From positions 15,788-79,787 of the forward strand of contig JAUJNH010000006.1 in assembly GCA_030448245.1 (NCBI GenBank): a stretch of 64,000 nucleotides of DNA, in the 5' to 3' direction. Numbering within the stretch: position 1 is the stretch's first letter; each line of letters begins with the position of its first letter. Both the position numbers and the translations under genes were made by a program. Of this stretch, positions 23,331-62,834 are shown piece after piece. A model generated the notes under the pieces. That model was given only the letters and a program-made list of their open reading frames with translations. It made no database searches and was not told where the DNA came from. The stretch comes from Acidimicrobiales bacterium (GTDB lineage: Bacteria; Actinomycetota; Acidimicrobiia; Acidimicrobiales; JAUJNH01).

Positions 23331-23335
23331 CCGCC

Positions 23336-26387: not shown

Positions 26388-26549
26388 GCCGCCGCCGGAC
26401 CGGGACGAGGCTCTGGGGCGGCCTCAACAGCCGCGGGTGGGCCCAGAACGCCCAACCAGAACGCCTTCATGCAGCCCAGGCGTCGCCACCAGGGCGCCGA
26501 TCGGGCGCCGGGGTACCGCACGTCCCGAGGGCCCGGTAACGCTCGAGTC

Positions 26550-26945: not shown

Positions 26946-27625
26946 ATCCGTGCGATTGGTGACGAACAGGCGCTTGGTGTGTCTCGCAGCGCTCCTCGCA
27001 GGCCCGGCCCCCGATCCCGAGCTGAGGCACCTGGCATGAGCGCTCCCTAACGGCGGGCTGCCGAAGTGGTTCGGCCGGAATCTGACGCATTGTGGGGCAC
27101 GATCCAGACTGGCGCCACCTCAGAGGTCGTGGATGATCATCCCTTCCTCATCATCCGGGTCAGGTCGGAGGGTCTGTTCGCTCCCGGAGCTGACGGTGAG
27201 CGCTTCATCAGGACCACCCAACGACTGCGACAAGGCTGACGGCAGTCACCTCGTGGCCGTCGGCTCTGCCTGTGCCTCGAGCGTGGGGTTGAGGTCGAGC
27301 GCGCGACGGCGGGGAGCCGGGCGGCCAGCCCCGCGCACGGCGGAACGGGGTAGGCCTGGAAGAGGAGCCGGCGCCAGCGGGCGCCGGCCGCCTCGGCAGC
27401 GAACTGGGCGTGGCGCTCGGCCACCATCTGAGCGGTGAAGTTGGGGTGTCCGAGCATGGGCCATTGTTCGCACCCGAGGTAGGCACCCGCAATCGGTTAA
27501 GCGTCCGTCCGACGTCAGCCCGAGCCGCCGTGACCTGGTCACGACCAGCATCTGGCAGGCCAGGATCCGGGAGGCCTACCTGGAACAGCCCTCGTCGCCG
27601 CCTCGTCCTCGCGGCGCCGATCCGC

Positions 27626-27793
27626 CTACTTCTTCTCGCCCCGGGCCGCTTGGACGTCGTCCTCGACCTGTTGGACGGTCTCGTCGTCCGGCTTGTCGCC
27701 GGTCTTCTCCTCGGCCCGCCCCTCGGCTTCGACCTCGCGGTCCTCCGTGACGTTGCCGACCACCTTCTTGATGTGTCCCAAGGTCTCGCCCAT
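27626..27793 (-). CDS. CsbD-family small stress protein (55 aa), absent from the ORF track
   Basis: Manual translation MGETLGHIKKVVGNVTEDREVEAEGRAEEKTGDKPDDETVQQVEDDVQAARGEKK; CsbD-like KxxGKVTxD...EAEGK pattern. Confidence 0.5.
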   Translation of the reverse strand: MGETLGHIKKVVGNVTEDREVEAEGRAEEKTGDKPDDETVQQVEDDVQAARGEKK

Positions 27794-27858
27794 GGGGCGT
27801 GGGTCTACCCCCCGCGGCGCGTGCGGAACCCCGGGCGTGGCTTTGCCAGGATGCGGCG

Positions 27859-39101: not shown

Positions 39102-39965
39102 TCAGGAGGGCACGGCGCGGGCCAGGTGGGTGTAGAAGGTCCAGACCGAGGCGAGGAGCGGGAGGGCGACGAGGAGCCTGGCCGGCCACCGGCGCCACAG
39201 CCGGCCGAGGACCGACCCGGCGATGCCGAGGGCCAGGACCACGGTGCCCCACAGGGCCGACGGGACCCGCTCGGCCGGGTCGCCGCTGGCGCCCACCACC
39301 TCCTGGGCGACCGGACGGGCCTCCGTGGCGGCCACGGCCGGGTTGGGCTCGATGTCGGGTGACCTCGGGGCCGGGAGGGCCGCGGGGCCCTTCAGGTCGG
39401 CCACGACCACCAGCCGCTTGGCGGCCGAGAAGCGGGGGTGGCAGGTGGTGAGGGTGAGCTGGTTGCCGGTGGTGGGGTTGAGCACCTCGATCTCGTCCGG
39501 GTCGACGACGAACACCTTGCTGACCTCGTAGCGGAAGGCGCCCTGCACCGTGCTGACGAGGATCGGGTCGCCCGCCTCCAACTGGTCGAGCTTGAAGAAG
39601 GGTGCGCCGTAGGTGGTGCGGTGCCCGGCGATGGCGCTGTTGCCCGGCTGGCCGGGCAGCGGCGTGGTCGCGTAGTGCCCGGGTCCCTTGCGCAGGTCCG
39701 ACAGGTCCACGCCCTCGACCACCGCCTTGTCGAGCCCGATGCGGGGGATCCGGAGCCTGGCCACCGCCGATCCGACAGGAGGCGGTGGCGGCGCCGGCTC
39801 CTCCGCGAGGGGCTTGCTGACGTCCAGCTCGACCGGGGGAGCCGGGACGGGCAGGTCCTCCCGCAGGGCCGTCTGGGTGCGGGCCTCGCTGACGTTGGTC
39901 CCGAGGAGCTCGAAGGCCACGAAGCCGAGGACCAGGACGCCGAGGCTGATGAGCGTGCGCCCCAT
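39102..39965 (-). CDS. Sortase (class E/F-like) with extra C-terminal TM segments
   Basis: N-terminal TM anchor, catalytic TLTTCHP motif with conserved His/Arg; ~60-aa C-terminal hydrophobic extension. Confidence 0.7.
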   Translation of the reverse strand: MGRTLISLGVLVLGFVAFELLGTNVSEARTQTALREDLPVPAPPVELDVSKPLAEEPAPPPPPVGSAVARLRIPRIGLDKAVVEGVDLSDLRKGPGHYATTPLPGQPGNSAIAGHRTTYGAPFFKLDQLEAGDPILVSTVQGAFRYEVSKVFVVDPDEIEVLNPTTGNQLTLTTCHPRFSAAKRLVVVADLKGPAALPAPRSPDIEPNPAVAATEARPVAQEVVGASGDPAERVPSALWGTVVLALGIAGSVLGRLWRRWPARLLVALPLLASVWTFYTHLARAVPS

Positions 39966-40241
39966 GACCGACAGGACGCTGGCCAAGTCGACCCGGCGGG
40001 GTGGGGGGGCGGGCGGCGGCGCCGGCTCGACCCGCACCGCCGCGGCCTGGGCCGATGCACCGGCCAGGGCGGCGGCTGCCACCTCTGCGGGATCGGGCTG
40101 GGCGGCCGGGCGCGCAGGCGTCCGCCCCGGGGGACGGGGAGGTGCGGCACCGGGGGCGTCGAGGCCGCTGCGGAAGGCCGAGGAGAACCCGGGGCGCCTT
40201 GGTGGAACCGAAGGCCCCCCCGGTAGCCTGGGTCCGCTGGC

Positions 40242-40946
40242 ATGAGCCTCGCCGTCCACCTCCGCTCCGCCGTCTGCCTGCTCGGACGCTTCCCTGCCCT
40301 CGCGGGCGTCGACCTCGACGTCCGGGACGGCGAGGTGGTGCTCCTGGCCGGGCCGAACGGTGCCGGGAAGACCACCTTGCTGCGCGCCTGTGCCGGCCTG
40401 GTGCCCGTCGTCGAAGGGACCGCTGTGGTCCTCGGTCACGACCTGCGGGCCGACCGGAGGCCCGTGCGCCGGCTGCTTGGGCTCGTCGGTCACGCCACCT
40501 CCCTCTACGACGACCTCTCGGTTGCCGACAACGTCCGCTTCAGCGTACGCGCCCGGGGCGGCTCGTCCGGTGCGGTCGCCCCTGCGCTCGAGCGGCTGGG
40601 CCTCGACGGGCGCCTGCGCGACGTGCCCGTGGCCCGCCTCAGCGCCGGTCAGCGGCGCCGCTGCACCCTGGCGGGCCTCGTCGCCTGCGACCCACAGCTG
40701 TGGCTGCTCGACGAGCCCCACGCCGGCCTCGACCCCGAAGGGCGCGACGTGGTCGACCGCCTGGTGGCCGATGCCGCGGCCCGGGGACGCACGGTCCTGC
40801 TGGCCAGCCACGACCTCCACCGGGCCGCCGCCGTCGCCTCGCGCCAGGTCATCATCGAAGCCGGGACCGCGCGCAAGCACCTGGCTGGTGGCCCGGGCGC
40901 CGCACCCGGCGCTCCGGTCGAGCAGGCGGCCCAGCATGTGGGCTGA
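40242..40946 (+). CDS. ccmA: Heme exporter ATP-binding protein CcmA
   Basis: ABC ATPase Walker A GPNGAGKT, signature LSAGQRRR, Walker B LLDEP; first gene of the ccm operon. Confidence 0.8.
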   Translation: MSLAVHLRSAVCLLGRFPALAGVDLDVRDGEVVLLAGPNGAGKTTLLRACAGLVPVVEGTAVVLGHDLRADRRPVRRLLGLVGHATSLYDDLSVADNVRFSVRARGGSSGAVAPALERLGLDGRLRDVPVARLSAGQRRRCTLAGLVACDPQLWLLDEPHAGLDPEGRDVVDRLVADAAARGRTVLLASHDLHRAAAVASRQVIIEAGTARKHLAGGPGAAPGAPVEQAAQHVG

Positions 40947-41604
40947 CGCCGGGCTGGTGGCGGGAAAGGACCTGCGCATCGAGCTGCGGAGCCGGGTCGG
41001 GGTCAACCAGGTGGTGCCGTTCTCCCTGGTCGTGCTGGTCCTGTTCGCCTTCGCCCTCAACCCCGACCGCGGCGTCCTCGACCGGGCCGCGCCGGGCTTG
41101 TTCTGGGTGGCCGTGCTCCTCTCGTCGCTGCTGGCCACCCAGCGGTCGTTCGCCGTCGAGGCCGCCGACGGGAACCGCGATGGGCTGCGCATGTCGGGGC
41201 TCGACCCGGCCGGTCTGTTCCTCGGCAAGGCTGCTGCCGTCGCCGCCCAGCTCCTGCTGCTCGAGGCCCTGCTGCTGGTCGGCATCACGGTCCTCTACGG
41301 CACGACGCTGCGCTCGTTCGGCCTGCTGGCCCTGACGTGCCTGCTCGCCACCGTCGGCCTCGCCGGGGCCGGCACCGTCTACGGCGTCATGGCCTTCGGG
41401 CTGCGCGTGCGCGAGACGCTGCTGCCCCTGCTCGTGCTCCCGGTGCTGGCCCCCGTCCTGCTGGCCGCCACCCGCAGCTTCGAGGCGGCGCTGGCCGGAG
41501 CGGCCGGCGAGGCCACCAGCTGGCTGGGCCTGCTCACGGCCTTCGCCGTCCTCTACGTCGTCGTCGGCCTGTTCGGCTTCGGCCCCCTCCTCGAGGAGTC
41601 CTGA
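40936..41604 (+). CDS. ccmB: Heme exporter membrane protein CcmB
   Basis: 222 aa, six TM helices, 11-nt overlap with ccmA; start by offset within ORF 40360..41604. Confidence 0.75.
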   Translation: MWADAGLVAGKDLRIELRSRVGVNQVVPFSLVVLVLFAFALNPDRGVLDRAAPGLFWVAVLLSSLLATQRSFAVEAADGNRDGLRMSGLDPAGLFLGKAAAVAAQLLLLEALLLVGITVLYGTTLRSFGLLALTCLLATVGLAGAGTVYGVMAFGLRVRETLLPLLVLPVLAPVLLAATRSFEAALAGAAGEATSWLGLLTAFAVLYVVVGLFGFGPLLEES

Positions 41605-42401
41605 TGGCGTCCACCACCCCAGCCGCCCATCGGTCCGGGGGCCGGCTGTCGCCGCTCCTCGGTTGGGCGTCGCTCGTCCTGGTGGGGGCCACCGTCGGCC
41701 TCGGCCTGGTGCTCCCGAAGACGGCCGAGCAGGCCGAGTACAGCCGCCTGATCGCCGTCCACCCGCCCGTGGCCTGGGTGTCGTACGTCGCCGTGGGCGT
41801 GGCCTCGGTCGCCGCCATCGCCTACCTGGCCAGCCGCCGGGCCGCCTTCGACCGGGTGAACGCGGCCAGCCTCGAGGTCGGCGCGGTGTTCACCGCCCTC
41901 ACCCTGGCCACCGGCTCGATCTGGAGCCGGCCGACGTGGGGCGTCTGGTGGCGGTGGGAGCCGCGGCTCACCACCGAGGCGCTGCTGCTGGCCGTGCTGG
42001 TGGGGGCCATCGCCCTTCGACGGGCCCTGCCGCCCGGCACGGGTCGGGGCGTCGTCACCTCGATCTTCTCCCTGGCCACCCTGGGGCTCCTGCCCATCGT
42101 GCACTTCTCGGTCGAGTGGTGGCGGTCGCAGCACCAGCCGGGCACCCTCCTGGCCCCCGAGCCGTCGAGCAACGCCGACACCCCCTACCTCCTCGCCATG
42201 TTCGTCGGCTTCCTGGCCTTCACGGTCCTGTACGCGTGGATGGTGGTGCAGCGGGTGCGGATCGAGCGCCTCGAGGAGCAGGCCGACGACCTCGCGCTGG
42301 GGCGGGCCATCGCCGAGCGCCGGGCCGAGCGCGCCGACCCGCCGCCGGTCGCCCCGGCCGTGACCGGTCCCGCCGTGCCCACCGGTGAGCAGGCCGTCTG
42401 A
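41604..42401 (+). CDS. ccmC: Heme exporter protein CcmC
   Basis: TGATG overlap with ccmB; WWD-domain motif region (WGVWWRWEPRLT) and conserved His residues. Confidence 0.8.
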   Translation: MASTTPAAHRSGGRLSPLLGWASLVLVGATVGLGLVLPKTAEQAEYSRLIAVHPPVAWVSYVAVGVASVAAIAYLASRRAAFDRVNAASLEVGAVFTALTLATGSIWSRPTWGVWWRWEPRLTTEALLLAVLVGAIALRRALPPGTGRGVVTSIFSLATLGLLPIVHFSVEWWRSQHQPGTLLAPEPSSNADTPYLLAMFVGFLAFTVLYAWMVVQRVRIERLEEQADDLALGRAIAERRAERADPPPVAPAVTGPAVPTGEQAV

Positions 42402-42553
42402 TGGGCTACGTGGCCGCCGGCTACCTCACCGTCCTCGGCGGGGTCGCCGCCTACGCCGCCTGGCTCGTCCGCCGGTCGAGGCAGCTGACCGGTGACCGCA
42501 GGAGCGGGTCGGTCGGGCCGACGCGGCCCCGTGAGGCCCGGGAGGCGCCGTGA
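42401..42553 (+). CDS. ccmD: Heme exporter protein CcmD (50 aa), not in ORF track
   Basis: ATG overlaps ccmC stop; single TM then basic stretch (MGYVAAGYLTVLGGVAAYAAWLVRRSRQL); stop overlaps ccmE GTG. Confidence 0.45.
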   Translation: MGYVAAGYLTVLGGVAAYAAWLVRRSRQLTGDRRSGSVGPTRPREAREAP

Positions 42554-43068
42554 GGCCTCCCGCAGCCGACGCCCCGGTCCTCGACGACGAGGACCTGCCG
42601 CCGGTCGTCACCACCCGCCGGCCGCGCCGGGCCAAGCCGCTGCGCATCGTGGTGGCGTCGGTGGTCACCGTCGCCGCCATCGCCTTTCTGGTCTCCAAGG
42701 GCCTGGGCAGCGCCACCGTCTACTTCAAGACGGCCGACGAGGCCGTCGCCGAGCGGGCCGACCTCGGCAGCCGGCGCTTCCGCATCCAGGGAACGGTCCA
42801 GGTCGGCACGGTCCGCCAGGACGAGGGCCGGCTCCTCTTCACGATCCTGGGGGACCGGGGGGCGGTGGTGCCCGTCGTGCACACCGGCGGCCAGCCCACC
42901 GGGCTGTTCAAGGAGTCGATCCCCGTGGTGCTCGAGGGGCGGTGGGCCGAGGGCACCGACGCCTTCTCCTCGGACACGATCATCGTGAAGCACTCGGAGG
43001 ACTACCGGGTCGACAACCCGGCCCGGGTCGACGACTACGCGCCGGCGCCGCCGGCCCCCTCGTCGTGA
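42550..43068 (+). CDS. ccmE: Cytochrome c-type biogenesis heme chaperone CcmE
   Basis: N-terminal TM anchor, OB-fold, heme-binding His in VKHSEDY (HxxxY) motif. Confidence 0.8.
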   Translation: MRPPAADAPVLDDEDLPPVVTTRRPRRAKPLRIVVASVVTVAAIAFLVSKGLGSATVYFKTADEAVAERADLGSRRFRIQGTVQVGTVRQDEGRLLFTILGDRGAVVPVVHTGGQPTGLFKESIPVVLEGRWAEGTDAFSSDTIIVKHSEDYRVDNPARVDDYAPAPPAPSS

Positions 43069-45128
43069 ACGCCACCCTCGGCTCGATGGGGGTCCTGCTG
43101 GGCCTGGCCGGCGCCATCGCCGGCGTGGCCGCCCTCGCCGCCGGCCTGGTGACGGGCAAGGCGGCGCTGCTGCGCAGCGGCACGGTCTACGCGTGGATGG
43201 TGCTGGGCGGGGCGATCACCGCGTTCGTGGCGATGGAGCGGGCCCTGCTGGGCCACGACTTCTCCCTGCGGTACGTGGCCGAGAACCACAGCCGCTCGAC
43301 ACCGACGATGTACACGTTCGCCTCGCTGTGGAGCCGGCTCGAGGGGTCGATCCTGTTGTGGGCCCTGGTCCTGGCTGGGTTCGGCGCGGCCATGGCGTGG
43401 CGCTTCCGCGACCGCCGCACCGATCCGGTGGTGGCGTGGGCGACGCTCGTGGTCCTGGCCGTGTCGGTCTTCTTCTTCGGCCTCCTGGCCGGCCCGGCCG
43501 ACCCGTTCGGCACCGTCAGCCCGGTGCCTGCCGACGGCCCGGGACCCAACCCGCTGCTGCAGAACCACCCGCTGATGCTCATCCATCCGCCGATCCTGTA
43601 CCTCGGCTACGTCGGCTTCACCGTGCCGTTCGCCTTTGCCGTGGCCGCCCTCGCCACCGGGCGGCTGGGCGAGGGGTGGCTGGTGGAGACCCGGCGCTGG
43701 ACGCTGCTGGCCTGGGGGTGCCTCACCGTGGGCATCGCCATGGGCGCCTGGTGGAGCTACGAGGTGCTGGGCTGGGGCGGCTTCTGGGCGTGGGACCCGG
43801 TCGAGAACGCCTCGTTCCTGCCCTGGCTCACCGCCACCGCCTACCTCCACTCGGTGATGGTGCAGGAGCGGCGGGGGATGCTCCGGGTCTGGAACCTGTC
43901 ACTGCTGTGCGCCACGTTCGCCCTCACCATCCTGGGCACGTTCCTCACCCGCTCCGGCGTGCTCGAGAGCGTCCACGCCTTTTCCAACAGCAGCATCGGC
44001 GGGTGGATCCTCGGGTTCTTCGCCCTGATCGTGGTCGTGGTGATCGGGCTCATCGGCTGGCGAGGCGACCGGCTGCGCTCGCCCGGCACCATCGACAGCC
44101 CGGTCAGCCGCGAGGGCGCGTTCCTCGTCAACAACCTGCTGTTCGCCGGCTTCGCCTTCGTCGTCCTGCTCGGCACCGTCTTCCCCCTGGTCACCGAGGC
44201 CCTGAAGGACGACCGCATCACCGTCGGCCGCCCCTACTTCGACCGGATGGCGGCGCCGATCGCCGTGTCGCTGCTGTTCCTGATGGCGGTGGCGCCGGTG
44301 CTGCCGTGGCGCAAGGCGGCGGCCGAGACCCTGCGCGACCGGATGCAGTGGCCGTTCGCCTTTGCCGTCGTCGTCACCGTCGCCCTGGTGGCCTCGGGCC
44401 TGCGGGGCTGGTTGGCCCTCGTCGCCTTCTTCCTCGGAGGCCTCGGCGGCGGCTCGGCGGTGCGTCAGCTCATCCTGGCCACCCGCCGCAACGGGTGGCG
44501 GGGCCTCGTCGGCCGGACCAACGGCGGGATGGTGGTGCACCTCGGTGTCGTGCTGATCGCCGTCGCCTTTGCCGCCAGCGCCGCCTATGCGTCGAGAGCG
44601 GAGGTCAGCCTGGCCGAGGGGGAGAGCGCCGAGGTCGGCGGCCACCGCGTCACCTACCTGGGCACGGAGACCCGCCGCTTCGCCGAGTCCAACCCAAAGG
44701 CGGCGGTGACCACGGCCCGCCTGCGGGTCGACGGCGGCCAGGTGTACGAGCCGGCCATCACCCAGTACCGGTTCCAGGCCCAGGGGATCGGCACCCCGTC
44801 GGTGCGGACCGGGTTGTTCGAGGATGTCTACACCACCCTGGTCGAGGCGCCCTCCGAGCCAGGCGGGCGGGCCACCATCGGCGTGCTGGTCCACCCGCTC
44901 ACCATCTGGCTGTGGACGGGTGCCGGGCTCATGGCCGTCGGCACGGTCCTGGCCATGGTGCGCGCCGGTGGCCGCAAGCCGGCGCCGCCGGCCCGCCGCC
45001 GGCCGCCTCCCCCTGCCGTCCGGCGACCGAACCCGCGCCCCAAGGCCGGAGGAGCCAAGCGCCAGCTCGACAAGGTCCCCGTCGGCGCCCGTGACCGCAC
45101 CGCCCCGGTGGCCAAGCCCGCGCCATGA
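43065..45128 (+). CDS. ccmF: Cytochrome c-type biogenesis protein CcmF (heme lyase subunit)
   Basis: GTG overlapping ccmE stop; ~688 aa polytopic; WWD motif WGGFWAWDPVENAS plus conserved His. Confidence 0.85.
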   Translation: MNATLGSMGVLLGLAGAIAGVAALAAGLVTGKAALLRSGTVYAWMVLGGAITAFVAMERALLGHDFSLRYVAENHSRSTPTMYTFASLWSRLEGSILLWALVLAGFGAAMAWRFRDRRTDPVVAWATLVVLAVSVFFFGLLAGPADPFGTVSPVPADGPGPNPLLQNHPLMLIHPPILYLGYVGFTVPFAFAVAALATGRLGEGWLVETRRWTLLAWGCLTVGIAMGAWWSYEVLGWGGFWAWDPVENASFLPWLTATAYLHSVMVQERRGMLRVWNLSLLCATFALTILGTFLTRSGVLESVHAFSNSSIGGWILGFFALIVVVVIGLIGWRGDRLRSPGTIDSPVSREGAFLVNNLLFAGFAFVVLLGTVFPLVTEALKDDRITVGRPYFDRMAAPIAVSLLFLMAVAPVLPWRKAAAETLRDRMQWPFAFAVVVTVALVASGLRGWLALVAFFLGGLGGGSAVRQLILATRRNGWRGLVGRTNGGMVVHLGVVLIAVAFAASAAYASRAEVSLAEGESAEVGGHRVTYLGTETRRFAESNPKAAVTTARLRVDGGQVYEPAITQYRFQAQGIGTPSVRTGLFEDVYTTLVEAPSEPGGRATIGVLVHPLTIWLWTGAGLMAVGTVLAMVRAGGRKPAPPARRRPPPPAVRRPNPRPKAGGAKRQLDKVPVGARDRTAPVAKPAP

Positions 45129-45754
45129 CCGCAACCGACGAGGTGAGCCAGGAGAGTGAGCCGGCCGCTGCTCCTCGCCCGGCCGATGACCCTGACGTCC
45201 TGCCGAGGCGGGGCCGGCGCAGCGTCCTGCTCACCGTGCTGGTGGCGGCGGTGGTGCTGGGTGGCTTCGTCCTGCTCCTCGTCCTGGCCAAGCAGCCCGA
45301 CGGTCGCAGCGCCGTCGTCGGCAGGCCGGCCCCCGCGACCGACCGCGGGTTCGCCACCCTGGACGGCGGCGACGAGGTGCGCCTGGCCGACTTCCGGGGC
45401 CGCTACGTCGTCCTCAACTTCTTCGCCTCGTGGTGCGTGCCGTGCGAGAAGGAGCACCCCGAGCTGGTGCGCTTCCAGCAGCGCCACGGTCCCGCCGGCG
45501 ACGCCGCCGTCGTCCAGGTCCTCTACAACGACAAGCCCGGGCCGGCCCGGCAGTTCTTCCGCGACCGGGGCCAGGGCGGCTGGCCGGTGCTGATCGACGA
45601 GGAGGGCCAGTTCGCCCTCGACTACGGCGTCACGGGTCCGCCGGAGACCTTCCTCATCGACCCGCAGGGCAACGTCCTGTACGCGGCGAAGGGCGCCGTC
45701 GACCAGGCCCGCCTCGAGGACCTGCTGGTCCGGGCCAAGGCAGGCCGGCCGTAG
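45125..45754 (+). CDS. ccmG: Thiol:disulfide interchange protein CcmG/DsbE (TlpA-like)
   Basis: TM anchor, thioredoxin fold with WCVPC active site, GVTGPPETFLID motif. Confidence 0.8.
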   Translation: MTATDEVSQESEPAAAPRPADDPDVLPRRGRRSVLLTVLVAAVVLGGFVLLLVLAKQPDGRSAVVGRPAPATDRGFATLDGGDEVRLADFRGRYVVLNFFASWCVPCEKEHPELVRFQQRHGPAGDAAVVQVLYNDKPGPARQFFRDRGQGGWPVLIDEEGQFALDYGVTGPPETFLIDPQGNVLYAAKGAVDQARLEDLLVRAKAGRP

Positions 45755-46200
45755 TGCGCCGGTGGCTGCCGCTCGCCCTCCTGGGCGGCCTGCTGCTGGC
45801 CGCTCTCGCCGTCGCCGCCCGGCCCGAGGTGGATCGCAGCGAGGAGGCGCGGGTCGAGCGCATCGCCCGCGAGGTCCGCTGCCCCACGTGCCGGGGCCTG
45901 TCCGCCGCCGACTCCGACGCCGAGGCCGCCACCGCCGTCAAGGTCTTCATCCGCGACCGGCTGCGCCAGGGAGCCAGCGACGCTCAGGTCAAGGCCGAGC
46001 TGGCCGACCGCTTCGGCACCAGCATCCTGCTGCGACCGCCGGCCTCGGGCCTCAGCGGCCTCGTCTGGGCGGTGCCGGTCGGCGCCTTCGTCCTCGCCGC
46101 CGCCGGCCTGGGCTTCGCCTTCTGGCGGTGGCGGGCCCGGGGCCTGCGGAGGGCGACCGACGACGACGTCGTGCTGGTCGAGCGGGCCCGTCGGGCATGA
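45754..46200 (+). CDS. ccmH: Cytochrome c-type biogenesis protein CcmH
   Basis: GTG overlapping ccmG stop; signal/TM, CPTC motif (VRCPTCRGLS), C-terminal TM. Confidence 0.7.
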   Translation: MRRWLPLALLGGLLLAALAVAARPEVDRSEEARVERIAREVRCPTCRGLSAADSDAEAATAVKVFIRDRLRQGASDAQVKAELADRFGTSILLRPPASGLSGLVWAVPVGAFVLAAAGLGFAFWRWRARGLRRATDDDVVLVERARRA

Positions 46201-47057
46201 GGGCCGACGAGCTGAGGACCGAGCTCGAGGAGGAGCGGGACTTCCTCCTCCGCTCGCTCGACGACCTCGAGGCCGAGCACGCGGCCGGCGACCTGGCCGA
46301 CGACGACTACCGGGCGCTCGAGGAGGACTACACGGCGCGGGCCGCTGCGGTGCTGCGCCGGCTCCAGCGCCTCGACGGTCCCGAGGAGGTGGCGGTCAAG
46401 GGGAGCGACCCGGAGGCGAAGGCCACCGCCACCGCTCCCCGCCGGGCCGACACGTCCCGGCGGGCACGGTGGCCGATGCTCCTCGGCATCTTCGCCACGA
46501 TCGCCCTGGCCGCCGGCTCGGGCTACCTCGTCACGCAGTCGTCCGGCGAGCGCCGGCCGGACCAGGGGGTCTCGGGAGGCCCCGACAGCTCACCCCGGTC
46601 GCTCCTGCAGCAGGCCATCGACCTCGACAACAGCGGCAAGCTGGTGGACGCGGCCAAGCTGTACGACGCCGTGCTCGCCGAGGAGCCGGAGAACGTCGTC
46701 GCCCTCACCCGGCGGGGCTGGGTGCTGGGCCGCTCCGGGCGCCAGGCCGGGAGCACCGAGCTGCTGCAGGCCGGGCTGGGCTACCTCGACCGGGCCACCG
46801 ACGTCGATCCCAGCTACCCGGACGCCCACGCCTTCCGGGGCCTGGTGCTGGGCGCCCTGCGCCGGCCCGGCGAGGCCGCCTGCGAGTTCCGGCTGTGGCT
46901 GGCCATCGCTCCCATCACCGACCCGCAGCGGCCGGCCATCGAGGGCGTGCTCGACGAGGCGAGAGCCCAGGCCGGCGGCACCCTGCCCGAGTGCCCGGAG
47001 CCGCCCGTCCCGGTGCCGGTGCCGCTGCAACCCGGGGCCCCGACCCCGATGCCGTGA
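46197..47057 (+). CDS. ccmI: CcmI/CycH-like TPR-containing cytochrome c biogenesis protein
   Basis: ATGA overlap with ccmH; one TM, then TPR-like repeats (AAKLYDAVLAEEPENVVALTRRGWVL). Confidence 0.5.
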   Translation: MRADELRTELEEERDFLLRSLDDLEAEHAAGDLADDDYRALEEDYTARAAAVLRRLQRLDGPEEVAVKGSDPEAKATATAPRRADTSRRARWPMLLGIFATIALAAGSGYLVTQSSGERRPDQGVSGGPDSSPRSLLQQAIDLDNSGKLVDAAKLYDAVLAEEPENVVALTRRGWVLGRSGRQAGSTELLQAGLGYLDRATDVDPSYPDAHAFRGLVLGALRRPGEAACEFRLWLAIAPITDPQRPAIEGVLDEARAQAGGTLPECPEPPVPVPVPLQPGAPTPMP

Positions 47058-51105: not shown

Positions 51106-51218
51106 CCAGCCCACCGGACCTAGCTGCTCCAGGCCACGACCGGCGACGGGATCGGGACGGGGGCGGCAGGTGCCACCGTCCCGTCGGCGGCTGCCCCAGG
51201 CTGCGATCCTGGAGGGCC

Positions 51219-52625
51219 TTGCTGTTCCCCACCATCCGCTTCGCGGCGTTCTTCGCCCTCGTCCTCCCGGTCTCGTGGGCCCTCGTGCCCTCGTCCGTCC
51301 GGTGGAAGTGGTTCATGCTCGGGGCGTCGTGGTTCTTCTACGGCTGCTGGGACTGGCGGTTCATCGCCCTCATCGCCCTCAGCACCGCCGGCAACCAGGG
51401 CTTCGCCCACCTGGTCCACCGTTCCCCCGATGGCCCGCCCCGTCGCTGGGCGGTGCGGGCCGCGGTGGCCGCCAACCTGGCCGTGCTCGGCTACTTCAAG
51501 TACACCGGGTTCCTCTTCGACAGCGGGTCGTCGGTGCTGCGGTCGTTCGGCTTCGACGTGACCCCGCCGGCCTCACGGATCGTCCTGCCCGTCGGGATCT
51601 CGTTCATCACCTTCCAGGCGCTCTCCTACGTGATCGACGTGGGGCGGGGGAAGCTGGCGCCCACGACGCTGCTGGACTTCGGGGTCTACCTGTCCTTCTT
51701 CCCCCACGTGGTGGCGGGGCCGATCGTGCGGGCGTCGGAGTTCCTCCCCCAGCTCGACGAGCGGCCCGACCCCCGCAAGGTCGACGTGGGGCCGGCGTTC
51801 TGGCTCATCGCCGCCGGGCTGTTCAAGAAGGTGGTGATCGCCAGCTTCCTGGCCGACCGCATCGTCGACCCCCTCTTCGCCAACCCCGAGCAGCACGGCG
51901 GGCTCGAGGCGCTCGTGGGCATCTACGCCTACGCCATCCAGATCTTCGCCGACTTCTCGGGGTACACCGACATGGCCATCGGCCTGGCCGTCCTCCTCGG
52001 CTTCCGGTTCCCCCAGAACTTCAACAGCCCGTACACGGCCACCTCGGTCCAGGACTTCTGGCGCCGCTGGCACATGACCCTCAGCCGCTGGCTGCGGGAC
52101 TACGTCTACATCCCGCTCGGCGGGAGCCGGAAGGGGCGCAGGCGCACCTCCATCAACATCTTCCTGACGATGCTGCTGGGCGGTCTGTGGCACGGGTCGG
52201 CATGGACCTTCGTGGCGTGGGGGGCGCTGCACGGCGGCTGGCAGGTGTTCGAGCGGCTGCGCCGCGAGCGGTCTGACGACGAGGCGCCCGCCGGACCTCT
52301 CGCCCCCTGGCTCGGCCGCCTGCTCACCTTCCACATGGTCTGCCTGGGCTGGGTCTTCTTCCGGGCCGACTCGTTCCGCACCGCCGGGCTGGTCCTCAGC
52401 CGGCTCTTCCAGCCGTCGCCGACCCCGCTGAACGCCATGGTCCCCGTGGTCGTGGCCCTCATGCTGGCTGCCCAGTTCGTGCCCGCGGCCACGGTGGCCC
52501 GCGCCCGGGGCACGCTGGCCCAGGTCCACCCCGCGGTCCTGGGGGTCGGGCTCGGCATGGCCATCGCCGTCGTCGACGTCCTGGGCCCCGAGGGCATCGC
52601 CCCGTTCATCTACTTCCAGTTCTGA
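51219..52625 (+). CDS. MBOAT-family membrane O-acyltransferase (DltB/AlgI/PatA-like)
   Basis: TTG start (LLFPTIRFAAFF typical N-terminus); conserved MBOAT His (LGGLWHGSAW) and FWRRWHMTLSRWLRDYVYIPLGG. Confidence 0.8.
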   Translation: MLFPTIRFAAFFALVLPVSWALVPSSVRWKWFMLGASWFFYGCWDWRFIALIALSTAGNQGFAHLVHRSPDGPPRRWAVRAAVAANLAVLGYFKYTGFLFDSGSSVLRSFGFDVTPPASRIVLPVGISFITFQALSYVIDVGRGKLAPTTLLDFGVYLSFFPHVVAGPIVRASEFLPQLDERPDPRKVDVGPAFWLIAAGLFKKVVIASFLADRIVDPLFANPEQHGGLEALVGIYAYAIQIFADFSGYTDMAIGLAVLLGFRFPQNFNSPYTATSVQDFWRRWHMTLSRWLRDYVYIPLGGSRKGRRRTSINIFLTMLLGGLWHGSAWTFVAWGALHGGWQVFERLRRERSDDEAPAGPLAPWLGRLLTFHMVCLGWVFFRADSFRTAGLVLSRLFQPSPTPLNAMVPVVVALMLAAQFVPAATVARARGTLAQVHPAVLGVGLGMAIAVVDVLGPEGIAPFIYFQF

Positions 52626-52639
52626 CACCCACGACACCC

Positions 52640-53803
52640 ATGGCGGCCACTCCCTCCCTCCCGCCCCCCGGCCCGCCGCCGCGGCCTCGGCCCGTCCCGC
52701 CTCCGGGACCGGCGGCTCCGGGGCCTCGGCAGCCTGCGGCCGGGACGCCCCTCCCCAGCGTCAGGGGCCGCGTCGAGGGGGGCCGGGTGCACCGACCCGC
52801 CGGAGGGGCCTGGCTCACGATCCTCGTCACCTGCCTCGTCGGTCTGCTGTTCAACGCCGACGGGGCGGCCCACATCGCCGACATCCAGCCCCTCGGCTGG
52901 CGGCGCGACGCCGCTCGGGCGGCCGTCGCCCCCTTCCAGGGGGTGGCGCACGCCCTGCTGCTCAACCGGCCGCGGGCCTGGCTGGCCGGCGCTGTGGGGT
53001 CGCCCGATCTGCAGGGCGCCGGTCGCGACCCCGAGCCCGCGCCTCCCCCCACCAGATCACCCGGGGCGACGACCACCACGGTCGCGCCTCTCCCCGTCCG
53101 CACCCCGACGGCCGACGACCCGCTGCGCGTCTACCTCACGGGCGACTCCTTCCTGGCCGATGTCGGCCGGGGCCTGAGCGCCACCATCGGCAAGGACGAG
53201 ACGTGGGAGGCGACCACCGACGCCAGGCCCGGCACCGGCCTCACCCGGCCCGAGATCATCGACTGGCCGAAGCGGATCAAGGCCCGCCTCCCGAACGACG
53301 CCGAGGTGGTCGTCCTCGGCTTCGGCGGCAACGACGCCCAGGACATGCTGGCCGGCCGCCAGCTGGCGAAGGTGGGCGAACCGGAGTGGGAGGCCGAGTA
53401 CCAGGCCCGCATCGCCCGCGTCCTCGACGTGGTGGAGCGGCCGGGCCGCACGATCGTGTGGGTGGGCATGCCCGCCGCCACCGCCAAGAACATGGAAAGG
53501 GCCCGGCCGGCCATGAACCGGGCGGCCCAGGCCGAGCTGGCCCGCCGGCCCGGCTCGCTGTTCCTCGACACCGAGGCCACGCTCTCGGGTGGCGATGGCC
53601 GGTACAAGGACGTCCTGCCCGTCGACGGCGAGGCCAAGCGGGTGCGGGCCGCCGACGGCTTCCACCTGTCGCGGGCCGGCGCCACCCTCCTCGGGCGCTC
53701 GCTGGTGCGCCTGATCGGCACTGTCTGGCCGCTCGACGACGACGCCTCCGACGGCTCCTCGACCTCGGAGCCCGACTCCACCACGACCTCGACCGCCCCG
53801 TAA
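52640..53803 (+). CDS. SGNH/GDSL-hydrolase-like protein (DUF459-type), MBOAT partner
   Basis: Pro-rich N-terminus, one TM, SGNH-like blocks (YLTGDSF, VVLGFGGNDAQ, ADGFHLS); 15 nt downstream of MBOAT. Confidence 0.55.
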   Translation: MAATPSLPPPGPPPRPRPVPPPGPAAPGPRQPAAGTPLPSVRGRVEGGRVHRPAGGAWLTILVTCLVGLLFNADGAAHIADIQPLGWRRDAARAAVAPFQGVAHALLLNRPRAWLAGAVGSPDLQGAGRDPEPAPPPTRSPGATTTTVAPLPVRTPTADDPLRVYLTGDSFLADVGRGLSATIGKDETWEATTDARPGTGLTRPEIIDWPKRIKARLPNDAEVVVLGFGGNDAQDMLAGRQLAKVGEPEWEAEYQARIARVLDVVERPGRTIVWVGMPAATAKNMERARPAMNRAAQAELARRPGSLFLDTEATLSGGDGRYKDVLPVDGEAKRVRAADGFHLSRAGATLLGRSLVRLIGTVWPLDDDASDGSSTSEPDSTTTSTAP

Positions 53804-53856: not shown

Positions 53857-54393
53857 CTACTGGGACAGCTGGCCCCGGAGCGCCCCCTGTTGGTGCGCCT
53901 GGCTGTGCACGTTCACGTAGAAGCCCCCCGGGTTCGCCGTCATCCGCCCGATGAGTGCAGCGTCGGCGGTCGCGCATCCCTTCGTGGTGGTGTCAGTCGC
54001 TGTCGGCGTGGTCAGCGGGACCACCACACCACCGCTCTTGCCGGTCGCTCCCTCGTGGATGTGCATCGCGGTCGGCTGGTCGATCTTCTGGGCGCTGACC
54101 TCGTAGCAGACCTCGCGCTTGGTGACGTCGATGTTCACGGTCGCCGACCCGGTCCCGTCCGGGTCACCGGGCCCGGGAATCTCCGAAGCTCCCGTGAGGG
54201 TGGCCTTCAGCCGGGTGGCGCCCTCGGCCGCCCCGGCGACGGTCGTGGCCGCCTGCCTGGCGCCGCTGACGACGGTGGTGACCGCCTCCCTCGCATCCTG
54301 CCCCACGTCGTCGGCGTCATCACCGCACCCCGCCAGCGTCGTCAAGGCGAGGCCCGTGAACAGGCACACCGTGCCCTTGCTCTGCTTGCGCAT
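53857..54393 (-). CDS. CHRD-domain lipoprotein
   Basis: Lipobox LTTLAGCG; CHRD-like motifs (LTGASEIPGPGDPDGTGSATV, GFYVNVHS). Confidence 0.5.
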   Translation of the reverse strand: MRKQSKGTVCLFTGLALTTLAGCGDDADDVGQDAREAVTTVVSGARQAATTVAGAAEGATRLKATLTGASEIPGPGDPDGTGSATVNIDVTKREVCYEVSAQKIDQPTAMHIHEGATGKSGGVVVPLTTPTATDTTTKGCATADAALIGRMTANPGGFYVNVHSQAHQQGALRGQLSQ

Positions 54394-54607
54394 CCGATTG
54401 CTCCTTCTGCTCGGCGCTGCTGCCCTCGATCGACAGGTACCCATCGAGGCCCCGGACGATGCGAAGGCGTCAAGCGGGGCGGGGCGCTGGCCGGTGCTCG
54501 GGAACGGCGGCGGACCGAGTATCGGCGGAGGCTGCTCTGGGTTCTCGTCGCATCCGCCACCTCGGCCACGAAGAGGGCGCAGCCGCCGCGCGGTGCGGCC
54601 GCCTCGG

Positions 54608-55475
<868 letters not shown>

Positions 55476-55486
<11 letters not shown>

Positions 55487-56570
55487 CCACGCCGGCCGGC
55501 AGGGCGGCCGGGTCCCAGCCCAGCAGCGTGACGGCCTGGGAGAAGGCGAAGCGGTCGGTCATGCCGGCCACGTACGACACGGCCTCGCGCACTGCGTCCT
55601 CGCTGCCCGCGACCAGGCCCCGGGGGGTGGTGCCGTCGCCGAAGGTCGGCAGCACGTTGGGCCGGTCGGCGTACAGCTCGACCAGGGCGTGGAGGACCTT
55701 GACCACCGAGGCCCCCTGCTGGACCGACGCCGGCCGCAGGTAGACGTGCTCGTAGTCAAAGGCGCGCAGGGCGGCCAGCGCCTCGGCCATCTCGGGCACC
55801 ATCCCGACCCGGCCCTGCCCGGCCGACCCTTCGACCAGGCCGCGGATCAGCGCCCGCAGCTGGCTGGACCGGGTGGACCCGCACCGCTCGAGCACCACCT
55901 GGGGGACCATCTCGTAGGTGACGACGCCGGCGGCCACCGCGTCTTCGAGGTCGTGGCACACGTAGGCGATGCGGTCGGCCCACGACACGACTTCGCCCTC
56001 GGCCGTCGCCGGCGCCGGCCGGCTCCACGAGTGGTTGCGGATCCCGTCCAGCGTCTCGTCGCACAGGTTCAGCGGGGCCAGCGTGACGTCGGCGCCCCAG
56101 GTGGCGTGGTCGAACCCGTCGGGCAGGAAGGCGGCGAACGCGTCCTCGCTGGCGTGGCCACCGGGACCATGGCCGCAGTCGTGGCCCAAGGCGATGGCCT
56201 CGGCCAGCGCCACGTTCAGGCGCAGGGCTCGGGCCGCGGCGGTGGCCACCTGCGCCACCTCGAGGGCGTGGGTGAGCCGGGTGCGCTGGTGATCGTCGGG
56301 GAAGACGAACACCTGGGTCTTGCCGGCCAGCCGGCGGAAGGCGGCCGAGTGCAGGATGCGGTCGCGGTCGCGCTCGAAGCAGGTGCGCCACCCGTCGGCC
56401 GCCTCGGCCACCGCCCGCCGGCCCGCGCCGTGGGCCCGGGTGGCGCCCGGGGCCAGCGCCGCCGCCTCGGCCGCCTCGCGCTCGTCCCGCTCCAGCGGCC
56501 CCAGCCGGCCCACCACCGCACCCGAGTCGGCGTGGGCCACCCAGACGTCGTCGCCCGGATGTCCGGCCAT
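55476..56570 (-). CDS. dGTPase-like HD-domain deoxynucleoside triphosphate triphosphohydrolase
   Basis: HD motif region (LTHALEVAQVA, HDCGHGPGGH, CHDLEDAV), GMTDRFA C-terminal motif. Confidence 0.8.
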
Positions 56571-56670
56571 GGTCGACGCCCACTCCTGAGCTCGCGTGGT
56601 CGTGGTCACAGGGGCGACGGTAGCGAGGGGCCGTGACGGGAACGTCGATGGCCGGAGTAGGTTCCTCGGC

Positions 56671-56904
56671 ATGGAGGTCCGCATCGGTGTGACGCAGTCG
56701 GCCCGCGAGCTCGAGGTCGACCTCGGCGACGGCACCGATGGCGTGGCGTTGGGCGAGGAGATCGAGGCGAAGCTGGCCGCCGGCGGGGTGCTGTGGCTCA
56801 CCGACCGGAAGGGCCGCCGGGTCGGGGTGCCCACCGAGAAGGTGGCCTACATCGAGCTCGGCACGGCCGACGACCACCGCCGCGTCGGCTTCGGGCTGGG
56901 CTGA
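56671..56904 (+). CDS. DUF3107 domain protein (77 aa)
   Basis: MEVRIGVTQSARELEVDL...VLWLTDRKGRRVGVPTEKVAYIELG matches the DUF3107 signature. Confidence 0.6.
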   Translation: MEVRIGVTQSARELEVDLGDGTDGVALGEEIEAKLAAGGVLWLTDRKGRRVGVPTEKVAYIELGTADDHRRVGFGLG

Positions 56905-56918
56905 CCCGAAGCCCCTTG

Positions 56919-57869
56919 GTGGCGGCGACGACGCCTCTCCTCGACCGCCGCCTGCTCTTCGTCTCGGGGAAGGGTGGCGTCGGCCGGTCAACGGTCGCGG
57001 CCGCCCTCGCCCTCTTCGCCGCCGAGGAGGGGAAGCGGGTCCTGGTCTGCGAGGTCGACGCCAAGGGCAACCTGGCCGACTTCTACGAGACGGGCCCGCT
57101 CCGCTTCGCCGAGCGGCAGGTGTCGCCCGGCCTGTGGGCCATGGCCATGGACACCGAGGCCAGCCTGAAGCAGTACCTGTCGCTGCAGCTGAAGCTGCCG
57201 CTCGTCACCCGCATCGGCCCGATCGCCCGGATGTTCGAGTTCGTCGCGGTGGCCGGTCCCGGGGTCAAGGAGATCGTCACGATCGGCAAGTTCTGCTGGG
57301 AGGTGAAGGAGCGGCACTACGACCTGGTGGTCGTCGACGCCTCGCCCACCGGGCACATCGTCGGCCAGCTCGCATCGCCCCAGGCCATCAAGGAGCTGGT
57401 GCAGGTCGGGCTGGTCCGCACCCAGACCCAGTGGATGCTCGACATCCTGGGTGATCCGGCCAAGACCGGCCTCGTCGTCGTCACCACCCCCGAGGAGATG
57501 CCGGTGGCCGAGACGATCGAGCTGTCGCACCGGGTGCGGGACGAGACCAACGTCGACCTGGCTGCCGTGGTCGTCAACCGGGTCCTGCCCGAGCTGTTCG
57601 GCCGAGGCGAGGAGGAGGTGTTCGAGCGGCTGGCCGAGGATCCCGACGCCTTGTCGGCCGCCGTCGGGGGTGACGCCGCCCCGCTCCTGGACGCCGCCGG
57701 GCTCGCCGTCCGCCTGCGCCGCACCCGCACCGGGCACCTCGAGCACCTGCGCAAGGGCATCGACCCCGGCATCCCCCTGCTCTACGTGCCCTACCTGTTC
57801 CTGAAGCACCACGGCCTGCGGGCCACCCGCATCGTGGCCGAGGCGCTGGGCCAGGAGCTGACCACGTGA
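56919..57869 (+). CDS. ArsA/GET3-family ATPase (first of tandem pair)
   Basis: P-loop SGKGGVGRST; ArsA-like DTAPTGH equivalent (DASPTGH). Confidence 0.75.
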   Translation: MAATTPLLDRRLLFVSGKGGVGRSTVAAALALFAAEEGKRVLVCEVDAKGNLADFYETGPLRFAERQVSPGLWAMAMDTEASLKQYLSLQLKLPLVTRIGPIARMFEFVAVAGPGVKEIVTIGKFCWEVKERHYDLVVVDASPTGHIVGQLASPQAIKELVQVGLVRTQTQWMLDILGDPAKTGLVVVTTPEEMPVAETIELSHRVRDETNVDLAAVVVNRVLPELFGRGEEEVFERLAEDPDALSAAVGGDAAPLLDAAGLAVRLRRTRTGHLEHLRKGIDPGIPLLYVPYLFLKHHGLRATRIVAEALGQELTT

Positions 57870-59062
57870 CCGCCCCGCTCCAGGACCGCCGGGCCCGTGC
57901 CGGCGCCGGCCGACTCGAGGTGCTGCTCGCCGCCAAGGAGATCGTCATCACGTGCGGGTCGGGCGGCGTCGGCAAGACCACCACGGCAGCCGCGGCGGCG
58001 GCGATGGCCGCCCACCGCCAGGGCGGACGCGTGCTGGTCCTCACCGTCGACCCGGCCAAGCGCCTGGCCACCGCCCTCGGGCTCGAAGGGTTCGGCAACG
58101 AGGCGACCCGGGTGCCGGACTCCGCCTTCCGCCGCCGCGGCGGGGCACAGCCGCGAGGCGAGCTGTGGGCGGCCATGCTGGACACCAAGCAGAGCTGGGA
58201 CCAGCTGGTGCGCCGCCACGCCCCCGACGCCCGCACCGCCGAGCAGATCCTCACCAACAAGCTCTACGCCAACATCAGCGGCCGGTTCGTGCAGAGCCAC
58301 GAGTACATCGCCATGGAGCGCCTGTACGAGCTGCACCAGTCGGGCCGCTACGACCTGATCGTCGTCGACACCCCGCCCACCCGTAACGCCCTCGACTTCC
58401 TCGAGGCGCCGTCACGCATGGCCGACTTCTTCTCGAGCCGCTTCCTCAAGCTGCTGGCCGCCCCGTCCAGGAACCGCCTCGTCAGCGCGGCCAGCCGCCC
58501 CTTCTACTCGGTGGCCGACCGCGTCCTCGGCAGCCAGTTCCTGTCCGACATCGGCGAGTTCTTCACGCTGTTCGAGCGGATGGGCCCCGGGTTCGTCCAG
58601 CGGGCCCGCGCCGTCGAGCGGGTGCTGCACGACCGCCGCACCACCTTCCTCGTCGTCACCACCCTCGAGGCGGCGCCCGTGCACGAGGCCGAGTACTTCG
58701 TCACCAGCCTCGACCGCATGGGCTTCCACCTGGGGGCCCTGGTGCTCAACAAGGCGCTGCCGCCGTGGCTGCTCGCCGAGGCGCCGGCACGGCTGGCCGA
58801 CAGCCTGCGCGAGAGCGCCGGCGACACCGCCACCCGGCTGGCCCCCGCGCTCGAGGCCGAGTCCGCCCAGGTGCAGCGGGTGCTGTGCGAGGTGGCCGAC
58901 GCCTTCCTCAACTACCAGCTGGTGGCCCAGCGCGAGGCCGAGCAGAAGGCCGAGCTGTCAGCCCACGCCGAGGTTCTCGTCACCGTGCCGGCCTTTGACC
59001 AGGACATCCACGACCTGGCCGGCCTCCTCCGCCTGGGCGAGGCCCTGTTCGCCGACGGCTAG
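57866..59062 (+). CDS. ArsA/GET3-family ATPase (second of tandem pair)
   Basis: GTGA overlap with first; P-loop CGSGGVGKTT, DTPPT motif. Confidence 0.75.
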   Translation: MTAPLQDRRARAGAGRLEVLLAAKEIVITCGSGGVGKTTTAAAAAAMAAHRQGGRVLVLTVDPAKRLATALGLEGFGNEATRVPDSAFRRRGGAQPRGELWAAMLDTKQSWDQLVRRHAPDARTAEQILTNKLYANISGRFVQSHEYIAMERLYELHQSGRYDLIVVDTPPTRNALDFLEAPSRMADFFSSRFLKLLAAPSRNRLVSAASRPFYSVADRVLGSQFLSDIGEFFTLFERMGPGFVQRARAVERVLHDRRTTFLVVTTLEAAPVHEAEYFVTSLDRMGFHLGALVLNKALPPWLLAEAPARLADSLRESAGDTATRLAPALEAESAQVQRVLCEVADAFLNYQLVAQREAEQKAELSAHAEVLVTVPAFDQDIHDLAGLLRLGEALFADG

Positions 59063-62380: not shown

Positions 62381-62680
62381 CTACGCGGTGGCGCGGGAGG
62401 TGCGCTGGCGGGCCAGCCACGCCTTGCGCAGCTTGCGGCGCTCCTCCTCGGAGGTGCCACCCCAGACGCCGGACTCCTGGTTGGTGGCCAGGGCGAACTC
62501 GAGGCACTGGGGCTGGGCCTCGCAGGTGCGGCAGACGGTCTTGGCCGACTCGATCTGCTCGAGGGCGACGCCCGTCGTCCCGATGGGGAAGAACAGGTCG
62601 GGGTCGGTGTCACGGCAAGCGGCGTGGGTTCGCCAGTCGGCGATGTCCCAGTCGATTGAGCGGTGCCAGGTCAAGGTCAT
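62381..62680 (-). CDS. whiB: WhiB-family [4Fe-4S] transcription factor
   Basis: Four Cys (CRDTDPDLFFP, CRTCEAQPQC) and GVWGG turn, C-terminal basic tail. Confidence 0.8.
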   Translation of the reverse strand: MTLTWHRSIDWDIADWRTHAACRDTDPDLFFPIGTTGVALEQIESAKTVCRTCEAQPQCLEFALATNQESGVWGGTSEEERRKLRKAWLARQRTSRATA

Positions 62681-62834
62681 TGGTTGGCCTCCGATGGGCA
62701 CGTTCGGGAAAGAGTGTGAAATCATTCACATGAGCCCCCCGACCCATGCAGATGGAGATGACCTCCTCGACCGAGCGTAGACGGCTTTCGCCCGAATTGC
62801 AACGGTCGTAGCGGAAATCCTCGAGCCCTGCCCG

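Follow-up and report, generated by a model that had tools for sequence, protein, structure and literature searches.

A PatA/PatB-like gene pair in an Acidimicrobiales bacterium: a probable relay for O-acetylation of an extracytoplasmic glycan

Which acyl group is moved, and onto which envelope polymer, where a gene for a membrane O-acyltransferase of the MBOAT family is followed at once by a gene for an SGNH-fold protein? We addressed this question for one such pair, carried by contig JAUJNH010000006.1 of an Acidimicrobiales bacterium (assembly GCA_030448245.1). The stretch analysed, hereafter the window, comprises 64,000 nucleotides (nt) in all and has a G+C content of about 73%. A sequence-only reading of the window had placed an MBOAT and an SGNH open reading frame (ORF) at 51219-53803, exactly where we find both, and had proposed that an MBOAT and an extracytoplasmic SGNH transferase act there as a pair in the O-acylation of an envelope polymer, a proposal that both family profiles and the predicted fold uphold. 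Leaving the acceptor aside, the pair is very probably an acetyl relay of the PatA/PatB type. The fuller account, which draws on analogy with characterised systems and which we hold with moderate confidence, is that the relay is self-contained and would O-acetylate an extracytoplasmic glycan, most probably the C6-hydroxyl of N-acetylmuramic acid (MurNAc) in new peptidoglycan.

Resistance to lysozyme and the activity of autolysins are under the control of peptidoglycan O-acetylation. Its enzymes are at present divided between the two classical envelope types, with OatA assigned to Gram-positive bacteria and PatA/PatB to Gram-negative bacteria.

The two proteins and their catalytic residues

The first gene of the pair (51219-52625, + strand) encodes a PatA-like, polytopic membrane O-acyltransferase of 468 residues, assigned from Pfam, from the DltB structures and from the N-termini of its orthologues. 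It starts with TTG at 51219 and stops at 52623-52625. A Shine-Dalgarno-like GGAGGG (51211-51216, + strand), read off the sequence, precedes the TTG at a short spacing of 2 nt. The start is backed by 56 orthologues in which an M/L/V-LFPT opening (MLFPT in the window protein) falls at the same aligned position, and an NCBI record holds a 468-residue protein identical to the window MBOAT. The protein matches PF03062 (MBOAT) with an E-value of 9.6e-35 (120.9 bits, cut-off 27). DltB is the closest solved MBOAT (6bug and 8jem, E 2e-36), and the DltB family TIGR04091 is also the sole NCBIfam match, at 186 bits and below its cut-off of 375 bits.

Two elements of the MBOAT carry the functional assignment. 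His285 (codon 52071-52073, + strand, checked against the nucleotide sequence) lies in the segment RRW-H-MTLSRW and aligns with the His of the DltB WHMSLS motif, the universally conserved catalytic His of MBOATs, whose role falls to His315 in PatA of Campylobacter jejuni (PMC12148441). The C-terminal hexapeptide F463-I-Y465-F-Q-F468 (52605-52622, + strand, from the translation) is an FxYxxF acyl-shuttle motif, in which Tyr465 (52611-52613, + strand) is the predicted acetyl carrier by homology to the PatA motif. In C. jejuni PatA the Tyr of this motif is auto-acetylated from acetyl-CoA, and an acetylated FIYANF peptide serves as donor for PatB of Neisseria gonorrhoeae (PMC12148441). His285, Phe463, Tyr465 and Phe468 are each kept in at least 97% of 57 aligned MBOATs, and F(I/L)Y(F/A)xF forms the very C-terminus of every intact orthologous MBOAT of the related loci (62 of 62).

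The second gene (52640-53803, + strand; ATG at 52640, TAA at 53801-53803) encodes a PatB-like SGNH protein of the DUF459 family, with 387 residues in its long form, identified through Pfam and through its matches to the PatB structures by sequence, profile and Foldseek. Its ATG follows the MBOAT stop codon after 14 nt, and because of this short distance the two genes are probably co-translated as one unit. The match to PF04311 (DUF459) has an E-value of 5.4e-48 (163.4 bits, cut-off 27.2), so that both profile searches suggested by the sequence-only reading return strong matches; the other Pfam matches of the protein are Lipase_GDSL_2 and a weak SGNH only. The PatB structures of N. gonorrhoeae and C. 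jejuni (NgPatB and CjPatB) are the only strong sequence matches among solved structures, with an E-value of 1e-24 from the single sequence and of 6e-44 and 4e-34 from a family-profile search. The SGNH protein is a homologue of PatB, and not a member of the curated equivalog.

An AlphaFold model of the SGNH protein, built on 21 homologues, has a predicted local distance difference test (pLDDT) score above 90 over most of residues 160-360. From this score and from Foldseek we delimit the extracytoplasmic SGNH (DUF459) catalytic domain as residues 161-360 (53120-53719, + strand), with two β-hairpins modelled on the SGNH core at residues 236-243 and 325-334. The top five Foldseek matches in the PDB are five PatB entries, with E-values of 1.5e-15 to 3e-13 and TM-scores of 0.74-0.83 when normalised to the PatB chains as targets, and generic GDSL esterases rank after them (E about 5e-08 and weaker). 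A lack of support for the SGNH fold, which the sequence-only reading had regarded as fatal to its proposal, is not what the model predicts.

The catalytic residues are placed by alignment. Ser170 (53147-53149, + strand, codon checked) is the block I GDS nucleophile and corresponds to NgPatB Ser133 in 7trr. Block II is represented by the turn Gly198-Thr199-Gly200 (53231-53239, + strand), and block III by the oxyanion-hole residue Asn231 (53330-53332, + strand, codon checked), which corresponds to NgPatB Asn196. Block V reads D339-G-F341-H342 (53654-53665, + strand) and holds the catalytic Asp and His, its equivalents in NgPatB being Asp302, Ile304 and His305. Ser170, Asn231, Asp339 and His342 are invariant in 79 homologues. 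The hydrophobic wall of NgPatB (Leu250 and Ile304) appears, in the alignment, to be matched by Met285 and Phe341, and 60 of the 62 paired relatives have V, I or F at position 341.

Conservation of the pair and of its membrane module

When one genome per species was scanned, relatives of the SGNH protein turned up in at least 525, and the locus counts given here refer to the best 80 of those relatives. The loci come from Acidimicrobiia, from other Actinomycetota (Thermoleophilia, Gaiellales, Nitriliruptorales, Euzebyaceae, Egibacteraceae and Aeromicrobium), from Chloroflexota (Dehalococcoidia and Anaerolineaceae) and from Dormibacterota. Aquihabitans sp. G128 (L003) and Salinilacustrithrix flava EGI L10123 (L050) are cultured carriers of the pair. 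The proteins that match most closely bear the name Acidimicrobiales, and together with the G+C content of the window and its whiB, sortase and YkuD genes they place its source among the Acidimicrobiia-type actinobacteria. Of the 80 loci, 62 hold an MBOAT gene, which lies upstream on the same strand in 56, with a gap to the DUF459 gene of 0-17 nt wherever the ORF starts are unambiguous. This adjacency is far beyond chance, and the order MBOAT then DUF459 recurs in four phylum-level groups. The Gram-negative pat and ape2 (patB) genes stand in the same order (PMC1199599).

Among the 18 loci without an MBOAT gene, seven have no upstream sequence and about ten hold solo DUF459 genes. The solo proteins resemble the window protein in the catalytic domain only, and these paralogues do not have the N-terminal membrane and juxtamembrane region of the paired proteins. 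Eight of the solo loci (L051, L055, L057, L062, L065, L074, L077 and L079) are from Acidimicrobiia, mostly Ilumatobacteraceae, with no MBOAT gene within 5.6 kilobases (kb) upstream, and many solo loci have a conserved downstream ORF in common (a cluster of 10 loci). In five further loci (L006, L009, L020, L024 and L067) the MBOAT and DUF459 genes are 0.8-3 kb apart. Five of 104 scanned flanking or intervening ORFs are themselves DUF459 proteins, indicating a second DUF459 copy beside the pair in some loci, and a DUF4015 putative glycosyl hydrolase adjoins the pair in three.

The region that separates the paired from the solo proteins precedes the catalytic domain. A membrane-anchor helix occupies residues 54-71 (52799-52852, + strand; hydropathy peak at 53-71, model helix at 54-71, supported by alignment) and has a conserved LxNAD motif at its outer end. 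It is followed by three juxtamembrane helices (residues 73-81, 87-105 and 109-119; 52856-52996, + strand), modelled with a pLDDT of about 76-88, and by a linker at 131-149 that is of low confidence in the model. The juxtamembrane segment is kept even in relatives of 30-37% identity, and its helices are the counterparts of those described as amphipathic in the PatAB model (PMC12148441). The segment is probably an MBOAT-docking or membrane-surface region.

At the N-terminus, a predicted cytoplasmic, Pro-rich and low-complexity tail (residues 1-53; 52640-52798, + strand), delimited from pLDDT and in-frame conservation, ends in the basic stretch RGRVEGGRVHR, and residues 1-50 have low pLDDT (block means of 47-60). 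The tail bears on the choice of start codon, since the database record starts the protein 49 codons later, at GTG 52787, giving 338 residues. Codon-position GC in the Pro-rich stretch (0.88/0.84/0.86) is of no help in choosing between the two starts. In three relatives (L001, L082 and L083) a start codon lies within about 15 nt of the MBOAT stop, the frame stays open across Pro-rich segments and indels of differing length, and the motifs 'APPSLRPPP' and 'RP(S/T)V(K/R)G.VE.GR' are retained in frame. Because these relatives keep both the start just after the MBOAT stop and the in-frame motifs, the true start is, on comparison of the sequences, probably ATG 52640, and the record start a misannotation that leaves the protein 49 residues short. 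The sequence-only reading had called the long Pro-rich cytoplasmic N-terminus unusual. The tail is in the ORF and the relatives support the long start, but such tails are common among them: estimated as an upper bound, the stretch between the MBOAT stop and the membrane helix amounts to a median of 28 residues, and mostly to 11 to about 150. As an appendage that is variable and of low complexity, the tail does not set the window protein apart. At the other end of the protein, a disordered tail rich in Ser, Thr and Asp (residues 361-387; 53720-53800, + strand; pLDDT 32-37 over the last residues) differs in length and sequence among homologues.

Proposed relay, its acceptor and the alternatives

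The residues, the architecture seen in sequence and model, and the gene linkage suggest, by homology to the characterised proteins, the following chemistry. The MBOAT would bind cytoplasmic acetyl-CoA, and His285 would catalyse transfer of the acetyl group to Tyr465 of the protein's own FIYFQF tail on the outward side of the membrane. The DUF459 protein would sit beside the MBOAT, held by its N-terminal membrane helix and perhaps docked through the three juxtamembrane helices, with the SGNH domain predicted to lie outside the cell on the disordered linker. Ser170, activated by His342 and Asp339, could then take the acetyl group from Tyr465 to give an acetyl-Ser, Asn231 and the block II turn supplying the oxyanion hole. 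Finally, the acetyl group would pass to a sugar hydroxyl and not to water, aided by the hydrophobic Met285 and Phe341 behind the active site.

As to the sugar, the balance tips towards peptidoglycan, by analogy and for three reasons: the partner belongs to the PatB family and not to the AlgX, DHHW or DltD families; the module is free-standing among housekeeping genes, outside any polymer-synthesis operon; and the pair spans phyla whose common wall glycan is peptidoglycan. Several findings weigh against this assignment. SGNH partners of MBOATs have switched acceptors, to alginate, to cellulose and to secondary wall polysaccharide. The score against the NCBIfam PatB equivalog NF045704 is 94.6 bits, where the cut-off is 580. 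Catalytic-domain identity is 29% to NgPatB and 20% to CjPatB, which are 39% identical to each other. Block II has the canonical Gly198 in place of the Ser or Asn proposed to favour transfer over hydrolysis (Ser161 in NgPatB, Asn165 in CjPatB); paired relatives have Ser in 40 cases, Glu in nine, Gly in six, Ala in five and Val in two. A scan of roughly 50 window ORFs revealed neither an Ape1-type esterase nor a second SGNH/GDSL protein, and for the members in Actinomycetota and Chloroflexota a peptidoglycan acceptor is read only from homology to PatB. A missing Ape1 would nevertheless fit monoderm bacteria, because OatA is used there without a dedicated esterase.

The distance from proven PatB proteins, the sub-threshold equivalog score and the missing Ape1 would equally suit the same relay acting on another acceptor, namely a secondary cell-wall polysaccharide, a teichoic- or teichuronic-like polymer or a lipoglycan. 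A precedent is Bacillus PatA1/PatB1, which, as cited in PMC12148441, acetylates a secondary wall polysaccharide and not peptidoglycan, and bacteria of the Gram-positive type are generally described as using OatA for peptidoglycan. We nevertheless regard another glycan as the less likely acceptor, though a tenable one: the DHHW family is the one that goes with secondary wall polysaccharide and AlgX the one that goes with alginate and cellulose, whereas the partner here is PatB/DUF459; no glycopolymer synthesis genes accompany the pair in about 55 loci; and peptidoglycan is the envelope glycan that the phyla carrying the pair have in common.

A second alternative removes the relay altogether, making the DUF459 protein mainly an esterase (a de-O-acetylase) or a lipase and leaving the adjoining MBOAT to work independently or with another partner. 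Gly198 is of the canonical hydrolase type, the C. jejuni protein Cj0610c was deposited as a 'GDSL-family esterase' (8gr2), PatB itself was first named Ape2, and some Acidimicrobiia carry the solo DUF459 genes described above. Yet PatB is a transferase despite weak esterase activity in vitro (PMC9487903), the wall residues are kept, the gene is tightly and conservedly coupled to an MBOAT with an acyl-shuttle tail, and the paired proteins conserve an N-terminal membrane and juxtamembrane region that is absent from the solo paralogues, which together make this alternative very improbable. That the pair transfers some other acyl group, such as D-alanyl in the manner of Dlt or a longer chain, is very improbable, since, of the DltB resemblances that would favour it (the closest solved MBOAT and the sole NCBIfam match), the NCBIfam match stays far under its cut-off, DltA, DltC, DltD and DltX were not found beside the pair, in the window or in the related loci, and an FxYxxF motif fused to the MBOAT is the arrangement of systems that use acyl-CoA, not of Dlt (PMC12148441).

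The preferred PatA/PatB-type reading can be set beside each of the characterised systems. With PatA/PatB of N. gonorrhoeae and C. jejuni (PDB 7TJB, 7TRR and 8TLB; PMC12148441) the pair shares the MBOAT catalytic His and the C-terminal FxYxxF Tyr, and a partner gene immediately downstream of the MBOAT gene. The partner, as modelled, has the N-terminal membrane helix, the amphipathic helices, the disordered linker and the DUF459 SGNH domain with two β-hairpins of PatB, and, as aligned, its Ser-His-Asp triad, block III Asn and hydrophobic wall. The differences are that the window host is a member of the Actinomycetota, of monoderm type; that the cluster has no ape1, whereas the O-acetylated peptidoglycan (OAP) cluster has three genes; that the catalytic domain is no more than 20-29% identical to that of PatB and has Gly in block II where PatB has Ser or Asn; and that the window protein has the extra Pro-rich cytoplasmic tail of about 53 residues and the Ser/Thr-rich C-terminal tail. 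The pair thus shows most of the PatA/PatB structural features compared and departs from them in three, the block II Ser/Asn, clustering with Ape1 and the equivalog score.

The sequence-only reading had likened the pair to DltB/DltD, AlgI/AlgJ and PatA/PatB alike, and of these analogies the partner family singles out the last. As in DltB/DltD, the MBOAT is predicted to hand an acyl group via an FxYxxF Tyr to an SGNH-fold protein, but in Dlt the motif resides on a separate microprotein, DltX, and the donor D-Ala on the carrier DltC, whereas in the window pair the motif is fused to the MBOAT. The window partner is DUF459 and not DltD, and no dlt genes are seen in the flanks. An identity with Dlt was rejected, given the sub-threshold DltB equivalog score, this DUF459 partner and no sighting of DltA, DltC, DltD or DltX. 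AlgI/AlgJ/AlgF/AlgX (alginate) and WssH/WssI (cellulose) follow a comparable MBOAT and SGNH-like logic, with a fused C-terminal motif, but use AlgX-family partners and have their genes in exopolysaccharide synthase operons, neither of which applies to the window pair. An Alg/Wss identity was likewise rejected: there is no AlgX-family match, and neither the window nor about 55 related loci have an alginate gene or polysaccharide synthase near the pair. OatA, a fusion of AT3 and SGNH domains, probably makes the same product, 6-O-acetyl-MurNAc, by a Tyr-to-Ser relay of the same chemistry, and also works without a dedicated esterase. It differs in being one polypeptide with an AT3 membrane domain where the window has an MBOAT, and an OatA identity was set aside, as no AT3 domain is present and PF19040 (SGNH fused to AT3) scores 23.6 bits, under its cut-off of 27.

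A 2022 review described all DUF459/PatB members as Gram-negative (PMC9487903). In the literature available to us, the only trace of the DUF459 family in Actinomycetota or Acidimicrobiia was a DUF459 protein listed in 2008 as part of the Frankia secretome. The PatAB-type module, Tyr-shuttle tail included, is common in environmental Actinomycetota and Chloroflexota. Whether a relay of this kind is widespread among monoderm Actinomycetota, Chloroflexota and Dormibacterota as their means of peptidoglycan O-acetylation, working without Ape1 and with an N-terminal membrane and juxtamembrane module of its own, is to our mind an evenly balanced question. If it is, the textbook division into OatA for Gram-positive and PatAB for Gram-negative bacteria would not hold for much of the Terrabacteria. 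The pair offers a concrete candidate for how the wall is acetylated in lineages with almost unstudied envelopes; the mechanism is already known, and the gain is taxonomic and annotational, the correction of the SGNH start included, and not conceptual.

Gene neighbourhood and other features of the window

We looked for a third component by clustering the ORFs of the 80 related loci and by scanning 104 flanking proteins with Pfam. No third conserved component, whether an analogue of AlgF, of DltX or of Ape1, emerged from these 80 loci and 104 proteins, and the MBOAT alone is conserved; the Pfam scan of the flanking proteins also found no esterase conserved in the related loci. Two candidates were rejected: a recurrent cluster of ORFs of about 150 residues proved to be the antisense shadow of the MBOAT gene, and a cluster of ABC-F ATPases has no fixed position. 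For 50-odd loci, the genes nearest the pair were assigned to 99 different Pfam families, among which polysaccharide synthases form no theme. In the window the flanks of the pair are housekeeping genes, and no exopolysaccharide operon is seen there. An Rfam scan of the window gave no matches, a scan around the pair found no consensus promoter or terminator, and intergenic hairpins there are no more stable than those of shuffled sequence.

Immediately downstream of the pair lie a CHRD-domain lipoprotein gene (53857-54444, - strand; Pfam E 8e-30; lipobox LAGC) and a YkuD L,D-transpeptidase gene (54608-55486, - strand; Pfam E 8.6e-20), the latter encoding a membrane anchor and then 15 consecutive prolines ahead of the catalytic domain. 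The sequence-only reading had taken this flank as cell-wall context. Both genes are present as it described, but the flank of the two together occurs in none of the 80 species-level loci, and it was dropped as a functional context because it is not conserved across the family. The transpeptidase alone is kept in two close metagenomic relatives (L082 and L083), together with the whole surrounding syntenic block, and as the whole block is common to them its retention reflects recent common ancestry. In both relatives the transpeptidase gene directly abuts the DUF459 gene, which makes the CHRD gene look like a lineage-specific insertion. The peptidoglycan-related proteins of the window, which speak for a wall polymer as the target of the pair, are the YkuD transpeptidase, a sortase and an OmpA-like domain protein.

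The sortase domain is found only at residues 512-632 of a 728-residue ORF (39102-41288, - strand), whose long N-terminal part has no Pfam match and which may be over-extended. The OmpA-domain ORF (20116-20694) lies in a segment (19532-27800) with a G+C fraction of 0.67-0.70, against about 0.74 elsewhere, which may be an insertion sequence or an acquired island; the same segment contains an rve-family integrase gene (20691-21512) and a glucose/sorbosone dehydrogenase-like ORF (21897-22754, - strand). Two hydrogenase maturation genes, hypD and a hypF that the window start truncates, occupy the left end of the window (4-2919, + strand). Genes for cytochrome c maturation are clustered at 41337-47057 (+ strand) and encode a CcsA/CcmC-like protein, CcmF, a thioredoxin-like protein and a TPR protein; after them come a DUF1360 and a DUF3072 gene, for which L082 and L083 show synteny. 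Beyond the transpeptidase gene, 55476-59062 holds a housekeeping block typical of actinobacteria, made up of an HD-domain dGTPase-like gene, a DUF3107 gene and two ArsA-like ATPase genes, and a whiB gene lies at 62381-62725.

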